From positions 385-64,384 of the forward strand of contig JAFYZX010000005.1 of NCBI GenBank assembly GCA_017548505.1: a stretch of DNA of 64,000 nucleotides, written 5' to 3'. The translations under genes and the position numbers were made by a program. The stretch comes from Bacteroidales bacterium (lineage in GTDB: Bacteria; Bacteroidota; Bacteroidia; Bacteroidales; UBA932). The notes under the pieces are model-generated. The model had not been told where the DNA came from. It searched no databases and saw only the letters and a list, made by a program, of their open reading frames with translations. Of this stretch, positions 26,468 through 41,771 are shown piece by piece (position 1 is the stretch's first letter; the number at the start of each line of letters is the position of its first letter).

Positions 26468-27277
26468 TTACTTAAGTTTCCTGAAATCTGCGGCAGGTTC
26501 TTGTATTTGGATCAAGGAATCTGCCGCAGGCTTTTTTAACAGGAATGTACGGGATTCCTTATTCAAAGTGTCTGAGATTATCAGTTTTTCAGCCACGTCA
26601 TATCTTGAGGGGCCGTGTCCGAAAATGAAAGTATAAGTTCCACTTCCATTACCCGCTTCTGCAAAATGCCAGGAGACAGTCTTTCCGTCTCCGTTGAAAA
26701 ACAGGGTGTCTGCCCCGCTTGCGAAAACTCCTGAAAGCGGCTCGGGTTCAGGGGTTCCCGGATCCGGTGGCAGGTTGATGTTCTTGCAGCCTTCCAGTAG
26801 AGAAGCCAGAAAGTACAGAATCATAAGCACCAGAAGGATGATAATCAGCCAGCTGAAAAAGCCTCTCTTCTTTTTCTGAGGAGCGGCAGCTTGCTGGTAT
26901 TTTGGCTGCTGCGCCTGCTGATAATTCTGCCGTGGTGGTTGCTGATAGCTTTGCTGTTGCTGGTAATTCTGCCGCGGTGGCTGCTGATATTGTGTTCCGG
27001 TTGCGGAAGCTTCTGGTTTCGGCTTAGGATTTTCCCAGGATGAAAGCACCACTTCTCCGGCGGTTTTTGATGCTCCCAAAAACTCTTCCTGATTACCCTC
27101 AAGGGTATTGGTTTGAGGGCTCTGGCGGACTGTCTGTTTGGGAGCGGCCGGTTTCTTGGGCTTTGCCGGAGCCGGCTTGCTGGCCGGTGCCTTTGCAAGT
27201 TCCTGTTTTGTTCCGCAGACAGAACAGAATTTGGCGTCATCGCTGAGCTGTGTTCCGCAATTTGTGCAGTATTTCAT
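26468..27277 (-). CDS. zinc-ribbon membrane protein with Pro/Lys- and Gln-rich linker, unknown function
   Basis: 269 aa. N-terminal CxxC..CxxC ribbon MKYCTNCGTQLSDDAKFCSVCGT, a PAPAKPKKPAAPK stretch, and the 14-aa repeat QQPPRQNYQQ.Q.Y twice. One TM (FFSWLIIILLVLMILYFLASLL) and a ~100-aa C-terminal domain. Last gene of the operon, 3 nt after the giant gene. Confidence 0.75.
   Translation of the reverse strand: MKYCTNCGTQLSDDAKFCSVCGTKQELAKAPASKPAPAKPKKPAAPKQTVRQSPQTNTLEGNQEEFLGASKTAGEVVLSSWENPKPKPEASATGTQYQQPPRQNYQQQQSYQQPPRQNYQQAQQPKYQQAAAPQKKKRGFFSWLIIILLVLMILYFLASLLEGCKNINLPPDPGTPEPEPLSGVFASGADTLFFNGDGKTVSWHFAEAGNGSGTYTFIFGHGPSRYDVAEKLIISDTLNKESRTFLLKKPAADSLIQIQEPAADFRKLK
26488..26537 (+). 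terminator. probable pepP terminator embedded in the 3' coding end of the convergent zinc-ribbon gene
   Basis: CTGCGGCAG...CTGCCGCAG (9-bp stem, 24-nt loop) followed by GCTTTTTT, 25-75 nt after the pepP stop. Confidence 0.6.
26922..26989. repeat. 42-nt in-frame tandem repeat inside the zinc-ribbon gene
   Basis: TAATTCTGCCGTGGTGGTTGCTGATA (26922-26947) and TAATTCTGCCGCGGTGGCTGCTGATA (26964-26989). They encode the duplicated QQPPRQNYQQ unit on the minus strand. Confidence 0.85.
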
Positions 27278-27280
27278 GGC

Positions 27281-30200
27281 TTATAGGTATTCGTTTATTT
27301 CTTTTATTACTCCGGCACATTCTTCCACAACCTGCTCGATTGTGCAGCCGTACTGGTCCTGAAGGACGAGCCTTGCCTCTTCCAGCGTGGTAGGGAGGAT
27401 GTCTTTTGGAGGAGGGTTGCCAATGGATTCGAGGATACGGATTTTCTCGTACAGAATGCTGTAATCCTTGCCCACTCCCTTTGCATTGAGAGCTGTGATT
27501 CTTGGGTCAAGTATGCGCTTGAACTGCTTTACATTCTGGCGGATACCCTCTTCTATAAGAGCGTCTCCATAGCCGCGCACATGCATAGCCTCTTCTATCA
27601 TTCCCATATCGTAGAGTTGCTGGGCCTGATTCTGGCAATTCTTGCCCTGGCTAATCCATTCCTTGCACTTGTACTCGAAGGTGTTGGCAACCCTTTCAGG
27701 ATCGTAAAGTTTATTGGTCTGGAATTCTTTCTTGATGATATTCTGGAGGTCTTTTCCGTATGATTCCTTTCCGAGTTCTCCGTGGACGGTTGCCTGGTCG
27801 AACTTCTTCAATGTCTTGATTGCCTGCTGCTTGTCTGCCGGCATGTATCCGTAATGGTACTCGTTGAAGGCCTCGGCGTATGCTTCTTCCATTAGATCTT
27901 CCTGGATATCAACCCACTTGCCGTCCTTGCCCCTTACCTGGAAGGTTACATCCCTGTCTGCACCGATCTTCTTTCCAAGATAGAGATCGTCACCGGCATT
28001 TCCGGTTGCTCCCTTGAAAGGCTGTATGTCTTTTTCGGGAACTCCGAGTTTCTTGGCCAGTTTCTTAATGGTCATAGGATCCACCTCGTCATATATCTTC
28101 TGCATCTGGGCGTTGTAGTTTGCCCTTAGCAAATCGGACGGGCTGTTACGCAGTAGGTTCTGGGCGTTCTTGTTGCCCTGGAGAGCAAGAGTTGCGCGCC
28201 TGACTTCTTCTGGAGTGGCGTTAGGATTGTTCATCACCTTCTTGAAGTCGTCATATATCTTCTGCGCATCCTTACGGGCAACCTTTGAACATTCCTCAGC
28301 GAACTTGGACTCTTTTGTAAAGATGGCGTCTCCCTTCATCCTGGTCTTGCGGATAGCGTCGTTGGCACCGGCAATTGAAGATTTCCTGGTCTTGCCCGCT
28401 TTCTTTCCGGCATCCGTTATCTTGTCAGCTATCTTCTTGGTACTGAAGCTGCTGCTGTTGGCTATCTTTTTAGTAGCATCCTTGCCTTCCTTTGCCTTGG
28501 TGACGTAATCCTTGATTTTTTTATAGCCTTCCTTGAGCTTTCCCCATCCTTCTTTTGCCTTGGCAACAGCTTTGGCTTCCACCTGCTGCCCGACCTGGGT
28601 TCCCCTGGCCCATTTGAGTGCCTTTCCTCCCACATAAAAGACTCCTTCCCAGAAGAACACTTCCACACTGGCAACCACAAAGCCCTTGAAGGCGCTGTCT
28701 CCGCCCTTGTCTACATATTCCTTCATCTTTACGACTCCACTGTACGGCATGAGCACAAGTTCGGAGGCTCCTGCAGTAAAGTAGGCCAGGGCGATTCTCA
28801 GTCCGATAACCGGAATGGACTTTTCCATAGAGGCGAAGGTTGCAACAAAGGCGTTGAAGTTCTCGTCCGCTTCTGTCCACTCCGGAGTCCAGGCTGCATC
28901 ATTCACAAAGTAATACCCGATCTGGCCGGAACAGTACTTGTCAAAGACATTCTTTATCTTTTTGTAGTCAGGCTCATAGACACCGAACCGGCTGTCGTAT
29001 CCTTCTATGAGGGCGTGTACCTTATAATAGAAAGGCATCAGGTATGAGAATCTTGGGTCAAAGCCTATCTTTGAGCGGATGTCTATAAGCTGGTTGAGCT
29101 TTTTCTCGTCGTCCTTGAGAGCCAGGTTATACTCCCTGTTGTCTGCGATGTCGCGGAACGGCTGGGATATGATCATCACTTCGTCGGTGTCTTCATATTC
29201 CTTTCCGTTGTAAGTAACCTTGAGGGTAACCTTTGCCTTTGCCCTGTTAGGAGGCAGAAGTCCTCCGCCTCCGGAATGAATCAGACCCACAACGGTATTG
29301 TCCGAACGCACTTCCTTGCACACAAACTTGAAGTTCATCAAAGCGCAAGGATTTGGAACGTCATTCCCGTACTTGTCTCTGAAGAGAACATTTCCTTCAG
29401 GCATATCTTCGAAGGTGAAAACAGGCTCTGCATCAGGCAGTACGCTTCTGATATCACCTGTCTTTTTATCCTCGGCGATGAGCTTGAAAGTTACCTTGCT
29501 TTCTCCCCATTTCTTTCTTGCCTTAGGGTTGGTGGCAAGGATTTCATTCTCCAGGGTGCTGTCATAATCAACAAGGTATGCTTTAAGGGCCCGGATGTCC
29601 ATGTGGACGCCAAGATTCATCCTGTAAAGGTCGAACGTTGTTTTCAGAGGTTCTTTGCGTCCTTCCAGATTTACAGTCACGTAGCAAGTATAACGTTCAG
29701 CATCTCCTGCAATGGCGTTCTCCTTTTCCTTTTCCGTAATCTTTCCGCATTCCGTAACGTTTATCCGGAATTTAACGGGAATCTTCTCGTCCTGTAAAGT
29801 TTCTGCGCTGAAAAATTTTGCTCCGCCCTTGTCCATAGAAACATCAACGCCCAGCACTTCCGTGGTGCAGTTGTTGATTCCAAACTCCATGAACAGGGTC
29901 TTTCCGCCTCCAGCTTCAAATGTAAGCGCCTCTCCGATCACTATTTCCGGGCAGGCCACAACTTTGAAGACCACGTGGTTAATTAGTGTTCCGGCATGTC
30001 CGTTGAAGACAAATCTTACCTTGGCCTTGCCTTCTTCTCCCTCAGGAGGGGCATTTTTTGCCACAACGTTGCAGCTCATATATTTGCCCACCATCCGGGA
30101 ATCGCTGATGGAACAATTCTCCTCTTCAAAAATTGAAATCTGGGCTGAGAGGTCCGGCCTGTTTATCTTCTCTCCGTAAACGTTTATTTCTTCGATTCGG

Positions 30201-31060
30201 GCTCCAATCATCTGAGGAGGATCTCCCACCACGAGAGTATCTCCAAAATCCTTATAGAGAAGCATCCGGAAGCGGCTGCGGTCCTTGTCGTCGTCATCAT
30301 TCTTCTGCTCTTTCTTCTGAGGTTCTTTCTTTGCCGGCTTTGCCTTCGGCTTCTTCTTTTTGCCGATAAGAGCCGCTCCGCCTATAACAGCTGCACCGCC
30401 ACCTATGATGTAAATCCACGGAATCTCTGTTCCTTCTTCTTCCTCACCTTCCTTATCCGAGGCAACGGTGGTCTTTTCCGTCAGCTGCCCGGGTCCGCGG
30501 TATTCATATAGATATTTCTGATATACTGCAATTTCGTGCGCTCCCGCCTGAAGCAATTTGCAGCTTACCATTATCAGCAGTTTGGAATCCCTGCCAGGAT
30601 TAATGTTCTCAGATGGAAAATGTTCGTAAACTCTGAAAACTTTGCCGTCTCCCCGGAAAAAGGCCTGAGAGTATGAAGATGTCATTGTTGCTCCAATCTG
30701 GTAAACGAGCTTACATGCTTTTAGAGCCTGAGGAGTAAGACCCGGGTCAAATGCCCTGTCGTACTGGAAAGTTACATTGTCCTCATCTCCAAAGCGTATC
30801 TTGGAAGGAGGATCCTGCCAGGTCATGGTAACTGTGCCGTCGTTTGTGCGTGCATAGTTCCTTCTGATGGTCCACAGCTGTTTCTTATCTCTCCCGCTTC
30901 CGTTATGGGAAATGCCATCGCTGTTTTCCTGAATCTCGGTCTTTACCAGCACCCAGTAGCCTTCTTCTGCAAATGCTGAGGAAACTGTCGCGATAAAGAT
31001 GAAAAGAAACAAGCACTGTCTAATCCATCCCAATCGCTGGGAAAAACTATGATGGTTCAT
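27281..31060 (-). CDS. giant (1259 aa) multi-domain membrane protein, no recognisable family
   Basis: Signal peptide (res 1-31), ~180-aa ectodomain, TM WIYIIGGGAAVIGGAALIG (215-233), then a poly-Lys/Asp stop-transfer region. A beta-rich region (263-640) is followed by a hydrophobic hairpin (748-812), a Lys-rich low-complexity stretch (820-915) and a ~345-aa helical C-terminal domain. I recognise no catalytic motif. Confidence 0.8.
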   Translation of the reverse strand: MNHHSFSQRLGWIRQCLFLFIFIATVSSAFAEEGYWVLVKTEIQENSDGISHNGSGRDKKQLWTIRRNYARTNDGTVTMTWQDPPSKIRFGDEDNVTFQYDRAFDPGLTPQALKACKLVYQIGATMTSSYSQAFFRGDGKVFRVYEHFPSENINPGRDSKLLIMVSCKLLQAGAHEIAVYQKYLYEYRGPGQLTEKTTVASDKEGEEEEGTEIPWIYIIGGGAAVIGGAALIGKKKKPKAKPAKKEPQKKEQKNDDDDKDRSRFRMLLYKDFGDTLVVGDPPQMIGARIEEINVYGEKINRPDLSAQISIFEEENCSISDSRMVGKYMSCNVVAKNAPPEGEEGKAKVRFVFNGHAGTLINHVVFKVVACPEIVIGEALTFEAGGGKTLFMEFGINNCTTEVLGVDVSMDKGGAKFFSAETLQDEKIPVKFRINVTECGKITEKEKENAIAGDAERYTCYVTVNLEGRKEPLKTTFDLYRMNLGVHMDIRALKAYLVDYDSTLENEILATNPKARKKWGESKVTFKLIAEDKKTGDIRSVLPDAEPVFTFEDMPEGNVLFRDKYGNDVPNPCALMNFKFVCKEVRSDNTVVGLIHSGGGGLLPPNRAKAKVTLKVTYNGKEYEDTDEVMIISQPFRDIADNREYNLALKDDEKKLNQLIDIRSKIGFDPRFSYLMPFYYKVHALIEGYDSRFGVYEPDYKKIKNVFDKYCSGQIGYYFVNDAAWTPEWTEADENFNAFVATFASMEKSIPVIGLRIALAYFTAGASELVLMPYSGVVKMKEYVDKGGDSAFKGFVVASVEVFFWEGVFYVGGKALKWARGTQVGQQVEAKAVAKAKEGWGKLKEGYKKIKDYVTKAKEGKDATKKIANSSSFSTKKIADKITDAGKKAGKTRKSSIAGANDAIRKTRMKGDAIFTKESKFAEECSKVARKDAQKIYDDFKKVMNNPNATPEEVRRATLALQGNKNAQNLLRNSPSDLLRANYNAQMQKIYDEVDPMTIKKLAKKLGVPEKDIQPFKGATGNAGDDLYLGKKIGADRDVTFQVRGKDGKWVDIQEDLMEEAYAEAFNEYHYGYMPADKQQAIKTLKKFDQATVHGELGKESYGKDLQNIIKKEFQTNKLYDPERVANTFEYKCKEWISQGKNCQNQAQQLYDMGMIEEAMHVRGYGDALIEEGIRQNVKQFKRILDPRITALNAKGVGKDYSILYEKIRILESIGNPPPKDILPTTLEEARLVLQDQYGCTIEQVVEECAGVIKEINEYL

Positions 31061-31071
31061 TGTAACCTGTT

Positions 31072-31842
31072 TTATTTCTTTACTTTAGGGCAACGGGACT
31101 TTATATAGTTGTACACAAAGTCAAAGTCTTTCTTAGGCACATATATCTGGTTGTGCTCAAAAGGCTCGTGAACCTTGATGCACTTTAGCCATCTGAGAGG
31201 CTTTATCCTGCGTACAACCTTGAAAGTGGAGGTTGAAACCTGCTTGGTGGTAGAAAGGATTCCGACACCGGTAGTGGTGAGATTTCCCGTTGACGCACCA
31301 GCCATGGCAGTTATCCAACCCAGAATCTGGGCTTTCTTGAATTGCTTTGGCACCTGGATATGGCGGATCTGTTCTTCATCCATTTCAAACAGAACGCAAT
31401 AGCTGCCGCCATAAATAAAAGTAAGTACAATCAGGCTGATAATTGTGAGGCCTGCCATAATAGCCATGGCTATCAAAAGAGCCTCTCCCATTCCTGTCAA
31501 TTGATCCCAGTCTCCGTGTATGATAGCCGGTATTACTCCGAATACCAGCATCATACCCGCCAGAATAAAGAAGAAAATCTTGAGTACGGTAAACAGGATT
31601 ACTGGATTTGTAAGCATATTGAGCTTGTAAACCCAGCGGTACTTGCCATCGTTGCAGAGCTTGATTTCGGCACCCTGGTAGTTTTTATCTGCGGCTTCTC
31701 CTTCCGCATGCTTTTCTTCCGAATAGTGTTCCTTCTCTACGGGGATGTTCTCTTTTGCGGAGCCTTCCACCGGATTTCCGCAACTGGTGCAGAATTTTGC
31801 GTTGTCCGGCAACTGTGTTCCGCAGTTTGTGCAAAATTTCAT
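31072..31842 (-). CDS. zinc-ribbon polytopic membrane protein, unknown function
   Basis: 256 aa. MKFCTNCGTQLPDNAKFCTSCGN ribbon and a CNDGKYRWVYKLNMLTNP motif, followed by 3-4 hydrophobic helices and a basic C-terminal domain. It lies 11 nt upstream of the giant gene. Confidence 0.75.
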   Translation of the reverse strand: MKFCTNCGTQLPDNAKFCTSCGNPVEGSAKENIPVEKEHYSEEKHAEGEAADKNYQGAEIKLCNDGKYRWVYKLNMLTNPVILFTVLKIFFFILAGMMLVFGVIPAIIHGDWDQLTGMGEALLIAMAIMAGLTIISLIVLTFIYGGSYCVLFEMDEEQIRHIQVPKQFKKAQILGWITAMAGASTGNLTTTGVGILSTTKQVSTSTFKVVRRIKPLRWLKCIKVHEPFEHNQIYVPKKDFDFVYNYIKSRCPKVKK

Positions 31843-31864
31843 AGGACTATGTTTTTAATTATTT

Positions 31865-32071
31865 CTAGGAAAGGTCTATCCCGCAGCTGCGCAGGCCGAG
31901 CAATACAAAAATCAGCAAGGCGGCGGAAAGAACGAGGGTAATGACCATAAGAAGCCAGTTCTTTCTGTTTTTCCTCTGCGATAAAAGTCTGGCAATTAAG
32001 ACCAAAGACAAAACCAAGATTGCTACGACAATCCAGTTCTGAGTCTGGCTGAGTGCAAGAATTGTATTCAT
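31865..32071 (-). CDS. 68-aa two-TM membrane protein
   Basis: MNTILALSQTQNWIVVAILVLSLVLIARLL-SQRKNRKN-WLLMVITLVLSAALLIFVLLGL. Two hydrophobic helices are joined by a basic loop. The gene is wedged 8 nt and 22 nt from its neighbours. Confidence 0.55.
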   Translation of the reverse strand: MNTILALSQTQNWIVVAILVLSLVLIARLLSQRKNRKNWLLMVITLVLSAALLIFVLLGLRSCGIDLS

Positions 32072-32079
32072 GGCAGGCC

Positions 32080-33609
32080 CTAAAAATTGAAACCGATATC
32101 CTTTACCAGGCGGACGGCAAAGCCGGCAGCTTTTGAGTTAGAGGGATCATTATATACTCCTTTTAAAACTGAGGAAATAATCACAGCACCTCCCTCCGTG
32201 GAAGTCCAATAGAAGCCTTCTCCAAGACGATCAACATTCGTACCCATACGCCCTCCGGTAATAGGAAGGAAGACGGCGCCCTTAGGCTCCCAATCGGTTT
32301 TCCAATCGGATGAAGAAACTGTATTATCATTAAAGTTTGAGTGGGCTGAGTTCATCGCCGGGCTTGTCCAGGAGCCATCCGGGAGAAGGATAAGGCCCAT
32401 TATCCCATTTACAGTTGCAAAGCCATATTTTGTTGACGCATCGGCGCGGTGAGTCGTGATTTCCGACTCGGGGATGCCGAGCAAATAACCCCACTCCGCG
32501 CGTGACAGAGTTCGCCAACCGAAGCCGGAGGCATTGCCGCCGTTCGTGATTGCACTATTGCCCCATTCAGACCAGCTATAATCATTTTCATCATCGCTGA
32601 CGTTGTTTGGATTGTTTTGCGTTCCCCATCCCAAAAGATCCCGGTGATCGTCGATCTGCGAATTGCCGAAGCTGTCCCACTGGTTTTCGGCAAATTGCCA
32701 GGAACCCACGTACTGCAGGTTACCCTGAGAGAAATAGACCTTTTTCTCTTCCGAGACGGAGAACTTGCCGATGTATCTGGCGGTTTTCCACATGTGAGAA
32801 GCGTCATCAAGGCTCTTGAACTTGTAGAAAGTGCTAGGTGTGAGAGCACGAGTTTTTTCAAATATAGTATAATTATCTCCGTTGCATAGGTAAAAATAGT
32901 AATCCAACACAGTTCCCGGGCTGTCGATGTATCCTGAATAAACTACACCCTCGGCATCGGCAAACCCGGCAAGGGGACCGGTTGGGAGGGTATATTTAAT
33001 ACCATCATCCTGAATGCCTCTGACTTGCCGAGGCCTGACGTTGCTTACACGGAATGAATAATTCTTGAAGGTTGTTTGCAGGCCAGGAATGTGGAACTGG
33101 ACGGAATTCTCCGGGATGCTCAGGCTCAGGTTCAAAGTAATAGCCGTTCCGCTGACGGTGTATGGGACATTCTGCTGCTCCAGGTAATAGGTTGCCGGCC
33201 ATGCGTCGTCGGCAGTGACGAACTCAAGAATCTGCTTGTCGTTGAATGTAGTAAATTGCGGTGTAACATTGACCGGGAAATAGATGGCGTGGCAATACTT
33301 TCTGGCGGCGGCAAAATCACCCTCGGTAAAAGCGGCGCTCTGCGTTGCCTCCCATGTAGAAGCTCCAGCGTTGTATGTAAGAGTGAGATACTTGTTGTTT
33401 ATATCCTGAAACTTGACATAAATCTTATCTCCGCCGAGCCATACAGATTTGGCCTCCGCTTTGGTCTTTGGCGCATCGACGGTTACCTTGAAGGTAAAGT
33501 GGGCGGTCTCTTCCTTATCTGTTCCGTTGTCGTCAGGGGCCGGAAGATCATTCTTAGTGCAGGCGAAAAGCGCAGCGAACGCGCAAAGGAAAACAAATGC
33601 TTTTTTCAT
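32080..33609 (-). CDS. surface lipoprotein with C-terminal FISUMP/DUF1566-type (lectin-like) domain
   Basis: Lipobox FAALFACTKN when started at the ATG at 33609 (MKKAFVFLCAF). The C-terminal 200 aa carry GWRTLSRAEWGYLL, GAVFLPITGGR, FYWTSTE and AAGFAVRLVKD, resembling the Fibrobacter-succinogenes-major-paralogous/DUF1566 fold. First large gene of the operon. Confidence 0.7.
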   Translation of the reverse strand: MKKAFVFLCAFAALFACTKNDLPAPDDNGTDKEETAHFTFKVTVDAPKTKAEAKSVWLGGDKIYVKFQDINNKYLTLTYNAGASTWEATQSAAFTEGDFAAARKYCHAIYFPVNVTPQFTTFNDKQILEFVTADDAWPATYYLEQQNVPYTVSGTAITLNLSLSIPENSVQFHIPGLQTTFKNYSFRVSNVRPRQVRGIQDDGIKYTLPTGPLAGFADAEGVVYSGYIDSPGTVLDYYFYLCNGDNYTIFEKTRALTPSTFYKFKSLDDASHMWKTARYIGKFSVSEEKKVYFSQGNLQYVGSWQFAENQWDSFGNSQIDDHRDLLGWGTQNNPNNVSDDENDYSWSEWGNSAITNGGNASGFGWRTLSRAEWGYLLGIPESEITTHRADASTKYGFATVNGIMGLILLPDGSWTSPAMNSAHSNFNDNTVSSSDWKTDWEPKGAVFLPITGGRMGTNVDRLGEGFYWTSTEGGAVIISSVLKGVYNDPSNSKAAGFAVRLVKDIGFNF

Positions 33610-33625
33610 AATACAATCCTCCCGG

Positions 33626-33745
33626 TTAAATGTCTTCTTCATTCCACTTAGCTGGATTGGATACCTGTAACAAGGAAACAGCAGCCGTCAGTTCCACCAT
33701 TATGACAGAAGGTGCTGAATAGGTTTCTTTCATCATTTTATCCAT
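33626..33745 (-). CDS. candidate 39-aa sORF upstream of the operon
   Basis: Own translation: MDKMMKETYSAPSVIMVELTAAVSLLQVSNPAKWNEEDI. It lies between the predicted -7 box (33810-33817) and the lipoprotein ATG (33609). It is below the ORF-track size cut-off, and no homology was assessed. Confidence 0.3.
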   Translation of the reverse strand: MDKMMKETYSAPSVIMVELTAAVSLLQVSNPAKWNEEDI

Positions 33746-33809
33746 AGTATATCGTTTGTTTATTACTTTTCTGGAACAGAGGCGATGAGGGCCCAATCTC
33801 TCAGTTATG

Positions 33810-33817
33810 CAAATATA
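33810..33817 (-). promoter_or_regulatory. -7 promoter box for the zinc-ribbon/giant-protein operon
   Basis: The minus strand reads TATATTTG. It is 64 nt upstream of the sORF ATG (33745) and about 200 nt upstream of the lipoprotein ATG. Confidence 0.5.
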
Positions 33818-33944: not shown

Positions 33945-34015
33945 GGCCGGCAAAGCCGGAGCGTTGTAATCGTTGATGATGCGTGGCTATCGTGTATTCA
34001 GTATCGTATTCTAGA
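33945..34015. repeat. island repeat right-arm copy with alternative GC hairpin junction
   Basis: GGCCGGCAAAGCCGG (also present at 41621-41635) is joined directly to AGCGTTGTAATCGTTGATGATGCGTGGCTATCGTGTATTCAGTATCGTATTC. Confidence 0.8.
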
Positions 34016-34020
34016 AGGTT

Positions 34021-34084
34021 GATTTTTGTAAAATATCGCATTTTAAAATGCTGATTTTTGTAAAATATCGCGTTTTGAGAAAAT
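34021..34084. repeat. 32-bp tandem duplication containing a 14-bp perfect palindrome
   Basis: GATTTTTGTAAAATATCGC occurs at 34021 and again at 34053. GCATTTTAAAATGC (34038-34051) is a perfect palindrome. TATCGCGTTTTGAG (34065-34078) is shared with unit D (41485-41498). Confidence 0.85.
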
Positions 34085-34320
34085 TTCAGTACCTCTACGC
34101 CGTAAATAGAACAATGCTATGATAGACAAGAGAACATTGGTTTCTACAGATGATTATACAGCCTTTATCTGGAATGAGGGGAAGAATCTCACCGTGTTTT
34201 ATTATAACACCAGAGACAAGAAGGAAGCCGCTTAGAGCCCCAATAAATAATGGTTGTCACCAATAAGGGCAACCTCAAAATGTTGACCAAAAAGTGACCA
34301 ATTTTGGGGGATAAAAAGGA

Positions 34321-34368
34321 AAAGACTTTGTATGATGCTTGGAAATGAGCAACTTACAAAGTCTTTTT
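34321..34368 (+). terminator. hairpin + T-tract inside repeat unit A
   Basis: AAAGACTTTGTA-22 nt-TACAAAGTCTTT followed by TT, then the tRNA-end core. It is preceded by an A-tract, so it could act in both directions. Confidence 0.55.
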
Positions 34369-34382
34369 GTACCCGGAGCCGG
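34363..34382. repeat. direct duplicate of the tRNA-Leu 3' end plus flank (att-core-like), copy 1
   Basis: CTTTTTGTACCCGGAGCCGG is identical over 20 nt to 41681-41700, which is the 3'-terminal 14 nt of tRNA-Leu plus 6 nt of downstream flank, in the same orientation. Confidence 0.9.
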
Positions 34383-34496
34383 AGCGTTGGAATCGTTGAT
34401 AATGCGTGGCTATCGTGTATTCATTGGTGGCTGTATAAAGGAAAGCTCATCAAATGCTTAACTTTTCGGGTGATGTATTCACGATAATCCCCGAGA

Positions 34497-37934: not shown

Positions 37935-38021
37935 GTTGAAAGGCATTTTATAATGGTTGTCACCAATAAGGGCATTCTGAAAATGTGGTCAAAATGTGGT
38001 CAAATTTGGGGGATAAAAAGG

Positions 38022-38069
38022 AAAAGACTTTGTATGGTGCTTGAAAATGAGCAACTTACAAAGTCTTTT
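38022..38069 (+). terminator. hairpin + T-tract inside repeat unit B (after the hydrolase gene; convergent with SDR)
   Basis: Same 12-bp stem as unit A, with an A-tract upstream and a T-tract downstream. It sits between convergent genes. Confidence 0.6.
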
Positions 38070-38082
38070 TGTACCCGGAGCC
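38064..38082. repeat. direct duplicate of the tRNA-Leu 3' end plus flank (att-core-like), copy 2
   Basis: CTTTTTGTACCCGGAGCCG is identical over 19 nt to 41681-41699, in the same orientation. Confidence 0.9.
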
Positions 38083-38108
38083 GTAGCGGTTAAACCGATT
38101 GTCACCGT

Positions 38109-41421: not shown

Positions 41422-41441
41422 ATTACCTGTTTATCTTCACT

Positions 41442-41540
41442 GTGCCCAGAGCCGGAGCGTTGGAATCGTTGATAAAGCGTGGCTATCGCGTTTTGAGCAA
41501 CTAAAAATGTGGTCAAATTGTGGTCAATTTTGGGGGATTG
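41442..41540. repeat. island repeat unit D (degenerate core + right arm + iteron block)
   Basis: GTGCCCAGAGCCGG (12/14 match to GTACCCGGAGCCGG), then AGCGTTGGAATCGTTGATAAAGCGTGGCTATCGCGTTTTGAG, then AAAAATGTGGTCAAATTGTGGTCAATTTTGGGGGAT. Confidence 0.85.
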
Positions 41541-41660: not shown

Positions 41661-41687
41661 AAGGACTGCGGTTAGCAGTCCTTTTTG
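41661..41687 (-). terminator. tRNA-Leu terminator (bidirectional hairpin)
   Basis: AAGGACTGC-GGTTA-GCAGTCCTT lies immediately 3' of the tRNA. It is flanked by T-rich tracts on both strands. Confidence 0.7.
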
Positions 41688-41771
41688 TACCCGGAGCCGG
41701 GATCGAACCGGCACAGGTTTTACCCCACTGGTGTTTGAGACCAGCGCGTCTACCAATTCCGCCATCCGGGC
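41688..41771 (-). tRNA. tRNA-Leu (anticodon CAA)
   Basis: The reverse complement reads GCCCGGATGGCGGAATTGGTAGACGCGCTGGTCTCAAACACCAGTGGGGTAAAACCTGTGCCGGTTCGATCCCGGCTCCGGGTA. Acceptor GCCCGGA/TCCGGGT, anticodon stem CTGGT/ACCAG with loop CTCAAAC, long variable arm, T-arm GCCGG-TTCGATC-CCGGC. CCA is not encoded. Confidence 0.92.

Follow-up and report, generated by a model that had tools for sequence, protein, structure and literature searches.

Four adjacent minus-strand genes in a 64,000-nt stretch of the Bacteroidales bacterium assembly GCA_017548505.1 (contig JAFYZX010000005.1, positions 385 to 64,384; hereafter the window) form a conserved unit built on a gene for a 1259-aa giant protein. 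These genes are named B, C, D (the giant), and E, and the lipoprotein gene preceding them is named A (Table 1). The cassette B-C-D-E is tentatively read as an inner-membrane complex of a kind not described before, a sensor–effector or a scaffold, built around D; confidence in this reading is low because the searches found no output activity. It is considered a new kind of system and not a variant of a known one because its core families have no characterised relative, the C-terminal domain of D has no neighbour in PDB or BFVD, and the association recurs across phyla.

The conserved unit was defined by comparison with related loci. One genome per GTDB species was scanned with a pattern-based scan, which gave 76 loci (referred to by number, e.g., L006), and the window proteins were searched against the open reading frames (ORFs) of these loci. 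D was present in 73 loci, C in 40, E in 31, B in 8, and A in none, and 81 close homologues of D were obtained. In at least 22 of the 27 loci with at least 3 kb of flank on each side, a C-type and/or zinc-ribbon membrane gene lies no more than 4 kb from the giant. Of the five apparent exceptions, two (L025 and L031) have a 1210-aa giant resembling the one in L006, as judged by likeness of the giants alone, and the neighbour of the L006 giant has a double zinc ribbon, detected by Pfam alone. The conserved unit is the four genes B-C-D-E, not five, and the core shared across phyla consists of the giant together with a C-type protein and ribbon proteins. An initial annotation, made from the DNA letters and ORFs, had treated all five genes as a single operon unit in which two zinc-ribbon genes bracket the giant; the neighbourhood of giant, C-type, and ribbon genes is indeed conserved, and the inclusion of A falls away with its absence from all related loci.

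The local layout given in that annotation was borne out by the sequence. Five minus-strand ORFs are packed with gaps of 8 (A-B), 22, 11, and 3 nt, and E is convergent with a pepP-like gene 4 nt away. The proposed -7 box upstream of A was found on the minus strand, and a further TATATTTG copy lies within A (32866-32859, minus strand). Hydropathy agreed with the membrane segments that had been described. The AT skew on the plus strand is strongly negative (-0.17 to -0.31) across D (window 27000-31000) because the coding strand of the giant is A-rich (Lys/Glu-rich).

Table 1. Genes of the locus, parts of protein D, and the putative promoter element, with positions in the window.
Feature	Position	Strand	Basis or remark
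Gene A, 509-aa lipoprotein (full ORF 32080-33642, 520 aa)	32080..33609	minus	Second ATG at 33609
Gene B, 68 aa, two membrane helices	31865..32071	minus	ORF and hydropathy
Gene C, 256 aa, zinc ribbon and membrane hairpin	31072..31842	minus	ORF and PF13240
Gene D, 1259-aa giant, cassette core	27281..31060	minus	ORF; homologues; dN/dS
Gene E, 269 aa, zinc ribbon and one membrane helix	26468..27277	minus	ORF and PF13240
TATATTTG, Bacteroidetes-type -7 box upstream of A	33810..33817	minus	Sequence
D 1-31, signal peptide or N-terminal anchor (…SSAFA/EE)	30968..31060	minus	Hydropathy; same arrangement in relatives
D 32-213, predicted extracytoplasmic domain, fastest-evolving part	30422..30967	minus	Identity; dN/dS; homology to secreted proteins
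D 214-234, glycine-rich membrane helix, then KKKKPKAKPAKK on the predicted cytoplasmic side	30359..30421	minus	Hydropathy
D 263-631, three tandem Ig-like beta-sandwich domains, predicted cytoplasmic	29168..30274	minus	AlphaFold
D 641-830, helical region, two hydrophobic helices at its end (RIALG..TAGASELV..P; YVDKGGDS)	28571..29140	minus	dN/dS; alignment
D 831-914, lysine-rich low-complexity helical linker	28319..28570	minus	Sequence
D 915-1259, C-terminal alpha+beta domain	27284..28318	minus	AlphaFold
Codons D1035-R-D1037, DxD motif on beta strand after conserved GATGN loop	27950..27958	minus	Alignments; strand from model

The anatomy of D follows a plan seen throughout the family, namely a signal peptide or membrane helix, a variable domain, a membrane helix, and a conserved core. 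Hydropathy and charge (positive-inside) predict an outer N-terminal domain and a cytoplasmic remainder of ~1000 residues. In some members the signal peptide is replaced by a zinc ribbon and membrane helices, so that N-terminus and conserved core would both be cytoplasmic in these. In an Eggerthellaceae metagenome assembled genome (MAG; L004, 4730-5584), a gene of its own (284 aa) encodes the C-terminal domain, directly downstream of a giant lacking it, and because this stand-alone version has no signal peptide, the C-terminal domain of D appears to be an independent cytoplasmic module. The orientation proposed in the initial annotation, with the N-domain of the giant outside and the remainder inside, fits both the family-wide pattern and this split-off domain.

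D was modelled with AlphaFold and searched in two parts, residues 255-830 and 915-1259. The first model consists of three immunoglobulin-like (Ig-like) beta sandwiches (about 263-631) at a predicted local distance difference test score (pLDDT) of about 90, followed by helices; the hydrophobic stretch 729-830 was modelled poorly (pLDDT <50). Within this stretch, S766 never varies and R755, T762, G764, and E767 hardly do, and in some relatives the segment equivalent to D 641-830 is as hydrophobic as membrane helices. The membrane helix at 214-234 carries a conserved motif, IPW..I.GG...VGG. The second model (pLDDT 92.1, predicted TM score 0.88) is a helix-rich domain around a small sheet, in which D1035, D1037, K1131, and K1178 do not vary even across the most distant set (alignments A3 and A6), with further conservation of the GATGN loop, S1100/G1102/D1104, and E1171/R1174.

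Compared with its orthologues, D shows purifying selection throughout, with ratios of nonsynonymous to synonymous substitution rates (dN/dS) of 0.01-0.39 in every region. Conservation climbs from the outer domain (dN/dS 0.12-0.22) through the Ig-like domains (about 0.1) and the C-terminal domain (0.03-0.06) to residues 641-830, the most constrained part (0.01-0.06). Identity in the outer domain is 13-33% in comparisons that give 55-97% for the rest of D. Against the closest relative (L012), dN/dS of the outer domain is 0.18 and its dS is double the value for the 3' part of the gene, and because of this doubled dS, recombination of the outer-domain region is suggested. In relatives, between one and four giants stand in tandem, with most of their differences in the outer domain, and a Bacteroidales subgroup has, beside its giants, secreted 350-390-aa proteins homologous to the giants' outer domain. 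Such secreted paralogues were located in L001 (11849-14181), L003 (12061-14399 and 18370-19416), L020, L021, L023, L024, L035, and L038, and they contain an internal duplication (GG[VI]SF.L…PD.L.G twice).

No known family or function could be assigned to the giant or the ribbon proteins by profile and structure searches. With the five proteins as queries, Pfam, NCBIfam, PADLOC, and PHROGs matched the ribbons alone, in agreement with the earlier statement that no enzymatic, ATPase, nuclease, or transport family is recognisable. Foldseek with the C-terminal model gave no structural neighbour in PDB (best E 0.37, TM <0.25) or among the predicted viral structures of BFVD (best E 0.31), and with the middle model (D 255-830) only generic Ig, cadherin, and S-layer arrays (E 1e-8 to 1e-10). 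PDB sequence profiles returned for the C-terminal domain only KWOCA_102, a de novo designed protein of helical repeats (E 1.9e-7; taken to be a low-complexity helical match), and for whole D only chance matches of coiled-coil type, e.g., in the linker. Among 32 distant giants, Pfam found only ribbons, one CBM_48 in the outer part of one member, and one CwsA; with stand-alone C-terminal domains and the proteins of neighbouring genes as queries, a permissive Pfam search (E<=5) yielded nothing relevant. A full-text literature search found no description of the family, and the only names in any source are 'hypothetical' and 'zinc-ribbon domain-containing'.

The conserved residues of the C-terminal domain were compared with Pol-beta-type nucleotidyltransferases, which carry the pattern hG[GS]-x9-13-DxD. 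D is similar in having a strand, the GATGN loop, a short helix, a strand with D1035-x-D1037, and a beta hairpin, with G/N and DxD conserved. It departs from the pattern in its spacing of 14 residues and in lacking, among distant members, a conserved third carboxylate; conservation of D1051 and E1054 is confined to closer members. No nucleotidyltransferase match was found in PDB profiles or by Foldseek, and in Pfam only HIGH_NTase1 was matched (E 0.51), on a different stretch.

Tandem beta-sandwich domains after a membrane anchor are also found in PorM/GldM of the type IX secretion system and in S-layer or cadherin-like arrays. The matches of D to these are fold-generic (TM about 0.2, identity about 10%) without sequence homology, and the Ig-like part of D is predicted to be cytoplasmic, on the opposite side of the membrane. 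Another parallel in layout is offered by the RsgI-type anti-sigma factors of cellulolytic Clostridia, which are single-pass sensors with a variable outer domain. D shares with these a variable outer domain, one membrane helix, a conserved cytoplasmic part, and occurrence in plant-fibre-degrading anaerobes, with the CBM_48 in one relative. Unlike them, it has no anti-sigma or known output domain, and its predicted cytoplasmic part of ~1000 residues contains a novel domain besides the Ig-like ones. Nor does the cassette have a conserved sigma factor gene in its vicinity.

The two zinc ribbons of the partner proteins, both CX2C-X10-CX2C as in the initial annotation, matched Zn_Ribbon_1 (PF13240) well above its cut-off of 25 bits (C, 39.5 bits, E 4e-10; E, 38.2 bits, E 1e-9). 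Protein C consists of the ribbon (31768-31836), a DGKYRW motif, a two-helix membrane hairpin (31423-31578), and a conserved C-terminal domain predicted to be cytoplasmic. It has at least 755 homologues, without a Pfam domain beyond the ribbon, and C homologues adjoin giants in distant loci (E 1e-25 to 1e-67); PDB sequence profiles gave only chance membrane matches for this family. Protein E consists of the ribbon (27206-27271), a P/Q-rich linker, a membrane helix (26795-26851), and a small outer domain, with homologues in L008, L010, L011, L012, and others. B is kept in close relatives only, in the same position in L011 (E 6e-33) and L010 (E 1e-31). In 9 of the 32 distant members, a ribbon is fused to the N-terminus of the giant itself. 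The multi-helix N-terminal regions of distant giants were tested as fused C-type modules and were rejected as such.

The nearest described layout for C and E is in Lactococcus lactis, where Llmg_0524 and Llmg_0526 form an operon with a small gene lying between them (Llmg_0525), their N-terminal motifs bind zinc, and deletion of the cysteine motif of Llmg_0524 alters lysozyme sensitivity (PMC4628341). C and E have the same N-terminal CX2C-X10-CX2C ribbon, linker, and membrane helix or helices, and in both operons two ribbon proteins occur together with a very small membrane protein. This likeness is consistent with an envelope structural or maintenance scaffold that would organise wall, membrane, or surface-polymer synthesis without signalling, as are the stable chromosomal position of the cassette within its lineage and the flanking genes. 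The latter are mostly housekeeping genes (e.g., pta-ackA, hisS, purA, and glycosidases), and in some loci they include murF/alr, mraZ/rsmH, and glycosyltransferases. However, homology to the L. lactis proteins is limited to the 23-residue ribbon, and L. lactis has no giant, C-type module, or E-type outer domain. Most relatives of the carrier taxa lack the cassette, which appears confined to certain habitats; this is unexpected for a basic envelope function, and a pure scaffold role hardly accounts for tandem giants whose outer domains diverge. The scaffold reading is judged unlikely. The ribbon-and-membrane-anchor layout is also that of Zn_Ribbon_1 membrane proteins in general, such as TcaA, whose NCBIfam model was matched far under its cut-off (14-15 bits vs 550). 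Transglutaminase-core genes occur beside or near the cassette in L011 (5981-6898), L005 (13397-14374), L073 (1284-3119, fused to a zinc ribbon), and L069 (17385-19154), and as a remnant directly upstream of B in L012 (8036-8338); the window has none. As they were near a giant in L005, L011, L069, and L073 only and belong to two different families, transglutaminases were rejected as general partners.

The family is large and appears almost confined to organisms of ruminant guts and anaerobic digesters. A profile search of 1.84 billion representative proteins gave at least 764 clusters (50% identity) at E<=1e-3 and 200 at E<=1e-30. Pairing of a giant with a zinc-ribbon or C-type gene was found in Bacteroidota, Actinomycetota, Bacillota, and one Treponema. 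The GTDB loci are almost all from ruminant-gut MAGs and rumen isolates, a habitat pattern that depends on the pattern-based scan and on the genomes present in databases. GTDB carriers belong to Bacteroidales, Prevotellaceae, Bacteroidaceae, Coriobacteriales/Eggerthellaceae, Lachnospiraceae, Ruminococcus, Oscillospiraceae, Butyrivibrio sp. NC2007, and Treponema; the clusters also have as named members Ruminococcaceae bacterium YRB3002, Saccharofermentans, Thermoclostridium, and Ruminiclostridium. In Acetoanaerobium noterae (digester sludge; DSL2), ribbon genes adjoin a 1576-aa giant. Single-membrane Clostridia and Coriobacteriia are among the carriers as well as two-membrane bacteria.

A distribution that is patchy across phyla yet tied to a habitat suggests horizontal transfer and would suit a conflict system (anti-phage, abortive infection, or bacteriocin/predator defence), in which the outer domain would detect an attacker and the cytoplasmic domain, or the hairpin with the glycine-rich helix, would be a toxic or membrane-disrupting effector. 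The fast diversification of the outer domain with signs of recombination, and the tandem paralogue expansion, domain fission and fusion, and variable accessory genes of relatives, point the same way. The direct comparisons do not: in PADLOC-DB 2.0, A and D were unmatched and C and E matched through the ribbon only (E 0.005-0.08). The 115 flanking proteins of 11 loci gave few restriction-modification matches, and no neighbour recurred, with no formal enrichment test; other PADLOC matches in the flanks were read as generic ATPase-type, and none of the flank matches was mapped to a locus or set against a background rate. Relatives were found neither on IMG/VR viral contigs nor in phage records, and carriage by phage or plasmid was rejected, the sole 'plasmid' match being a 2.6-Mb replicon. 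Housekeeping genes make up most of the flanks of the 11 loci, the place beside pepP is stable within the lineage, no known effector domain was found, and the outer domain is under purifying, not positive, selection. The anti-phage role and co-localisation with defence islands floated in the initial annotation thus gained no support, and a conflict system is regarded as improbable. A polymorphic toxin or contact-dependent inhibition system was rejected since the conservation gradient is reversed (C-terminal part conserved, N-terminal outer part variable) and no toxin family was matched.

Gene A appears to have a separate origin. Its product is a lipoprotein with a Cys17 lipobox, and its signal MKKAFVFLCAFAALFAC starts at the second ATG, giving 509 aa in place of the 510 aa counted earlier. 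No A homologue was found in the related loci, including those of relatives with 86-93% identical D. In the DNA comparison, collinearity with the closest relatives from the pepP side ends at window position 32078, 7 nt upstream of the B ATG, and A sits beyond this break, on the island side. One Bacteroidales MAG encodes a hypothetical protein with 100% identity to A, and a 76%-identical homologue of A lies in an unrelated gene context without B-E. The C-terminal module of A (~225 aa, window 32080-32760) is common to more than 2000 Bacteroidales-type surface proteins. The module has no Pfam model of its own and is elsewhere joined to PF26707, PF18998, PF09603, PF07603, LRR_5, or Big_2. The FISUMP/DUF1566 domain assigned earlier was not recovered, as Pfam gave no DUF1566 or Fib_succ_major match to A at E<=1; the C-terminal motifs (GFYWTSTE … GFAVRLVKD) resemble these modules, and PF09603 or PF07603 occurs in a minority of the module's homologues, elsewhere in their sequences. 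Given its absence from the 76 loci and the end of synteny at 32078, A is the last gene of the tRNA-Leu island, an unrelated modular surface-protein gene and a recently acquired neighbour that joined the cassette by island turnover at the tRNA-Leu hotspot.

The stretch from A to tRNA-Leu (41687-41771) is modular cargo. Its modules are bounded by a repeated 50-150-nt intergenic element (33945-33998, 34247-34421, 37950-38097, and 41441-41538) that contains GTGGTCAAA…TTTGGGGGAT, also marks the same hotspot in L010, L011, L012, and L017, and may be a recombination or insertion site driving module turnover. A 32-nt unit (TATCG[T/C]AT…GATTTTTGTAAAA) occurs twice in tandem at 34002-34065, in the intergenic region upstream of A, and a 39-aa ORF, MDKMMKETYSAPSVIMVELTAAVSLLQVSNPAKWNEEDI, at 33626-33745 (minus strand) lies between the TATATTTG box and A, overlapping the first in-frame ATG of A (33642). 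The sequence preceding B in relatives is not present in the window, the island insertion having removed it. Transcription of A likely starts from the TATATTTG box at 33817-33810, and because the relatives' upstream sequence is missing here, B-E are probably transcribed by read-through from the promoter of A, so that A and B-E would be co-transcribed in this genome. The cassette itself is not accessory by virtue of lying next to the island, as had been supposed: it is syntenic beside pepP in relatives at 76-93% identity, a stable position within the lineage, and its G+C content equals that of the flanks.

A five-gene trans-envelope machine with lipoprotein A as its outer component would explain the A-B gap of only 8 nt and the promoter arrangement, in which the box upstream of A (33817-33810) or the internal copy (32866-32859) is the only recognisable transcription source for B-E; non-homologous lipoproteins or secreted proteins also adjoin giants in other loci. 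Against this stand the absence of A even in relatives with 86-93% identical D, the synteny break, the close homologue of A elsewhere without B-E, and the membership of A in the large modular surface-protein family. Reach to an outer membrane is moreover not conserved, as single-membrane Clostridia and Coriobacteriia carry the cassette too. This layout, and with it A as a member of the system, is judged largely refuted from the comparison of loci and is very improbable.

For the inner-membrane complex around D, the following mechanism is proposed. The fast-evolving, recombining domain of D on the outer face of the cytoplasmic membrane would bind a variable external or envelope ligand, and the glycine-rich membrane helix would link it to a highly constrained cytoplasmic machine, allowing signalling from outside to inside. 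This machine would comprise the three Ig-like domains as a spacer or interaction array, the hydrophobic helical hairpin, probably in or on the inner leaflet, the lysine-rich linker, and the C-terminal domain of novel fold. The invariant DxD, the two lysines, and an E..RQ..K helix hint at an output, enzymatic or binding, that depends on metal or phosphate. C, with its hairpin and cytoplasmic domain, and the single-pass E would be obligate partners, their cytoplasmic zinc ribbons touching the cytoplasmic part of D or the target of D.

In favour of this reading are the co-occurrence of giants with C-type and ribbon genes across phyla, the ribbon fusions, the family-wide plan, the split-off C-terminal domain, the rise in conservation towards the cytoplasmic part, the confident C-terminal model with its invariant residues, the tandem giants with free secreted copies of the outer domain, and the CBM_48 match in one distant member. 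Several points weigh against this mechanism. The topology derives from rules of hydropathy and charge. Scans of the family found no kinase, cyclase, anti-sigma, or DNA-binding domain. DxD alone is no proof of catalysis, and the third acidic residue is unconserved in distant members. Around 1000 cytoplasmic residues would be very large for a sensor, and three cytoplasmic Ig-like domains would be unusual. A wider and doubtful proposal is that the cassette represents a new membrane-embedded sensor–effector class exchanged among phyla in plant-fibre-degrading anaerobes, in which a DxD enzyme fold is triggered by a diversifying outer receptor domain and which may serve defence against a habitat-specific threat or the sensing of a habitat polymer.

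Many conserved 'hypothetical' clusters exist, and the mechanism given here is conjecture. The locus illustrates how turnover at a tRNA-Leu hotspot can attach an unrelated gene to a conserved operon. The giant, C-type, and E-type proteins are three co-inherited families without annotation, a Pfam domain beyond the 23-residue ribbon, or a relative in the sets of solved and predicted viral structures that were searched, and their spread over four phyla together with an apparently narrow habitat points to a transferable, habitat-tied function. The natural 284-aa version of the C-terminal domain in L004 is a convenient construct for biochemistry, and the cultured carriers Butyrivibrio sp. NC2007, Ruminococcaceae bacterium YRB3002, and Acetoanaerobium noterae DSL2 make the system experimentally testable.

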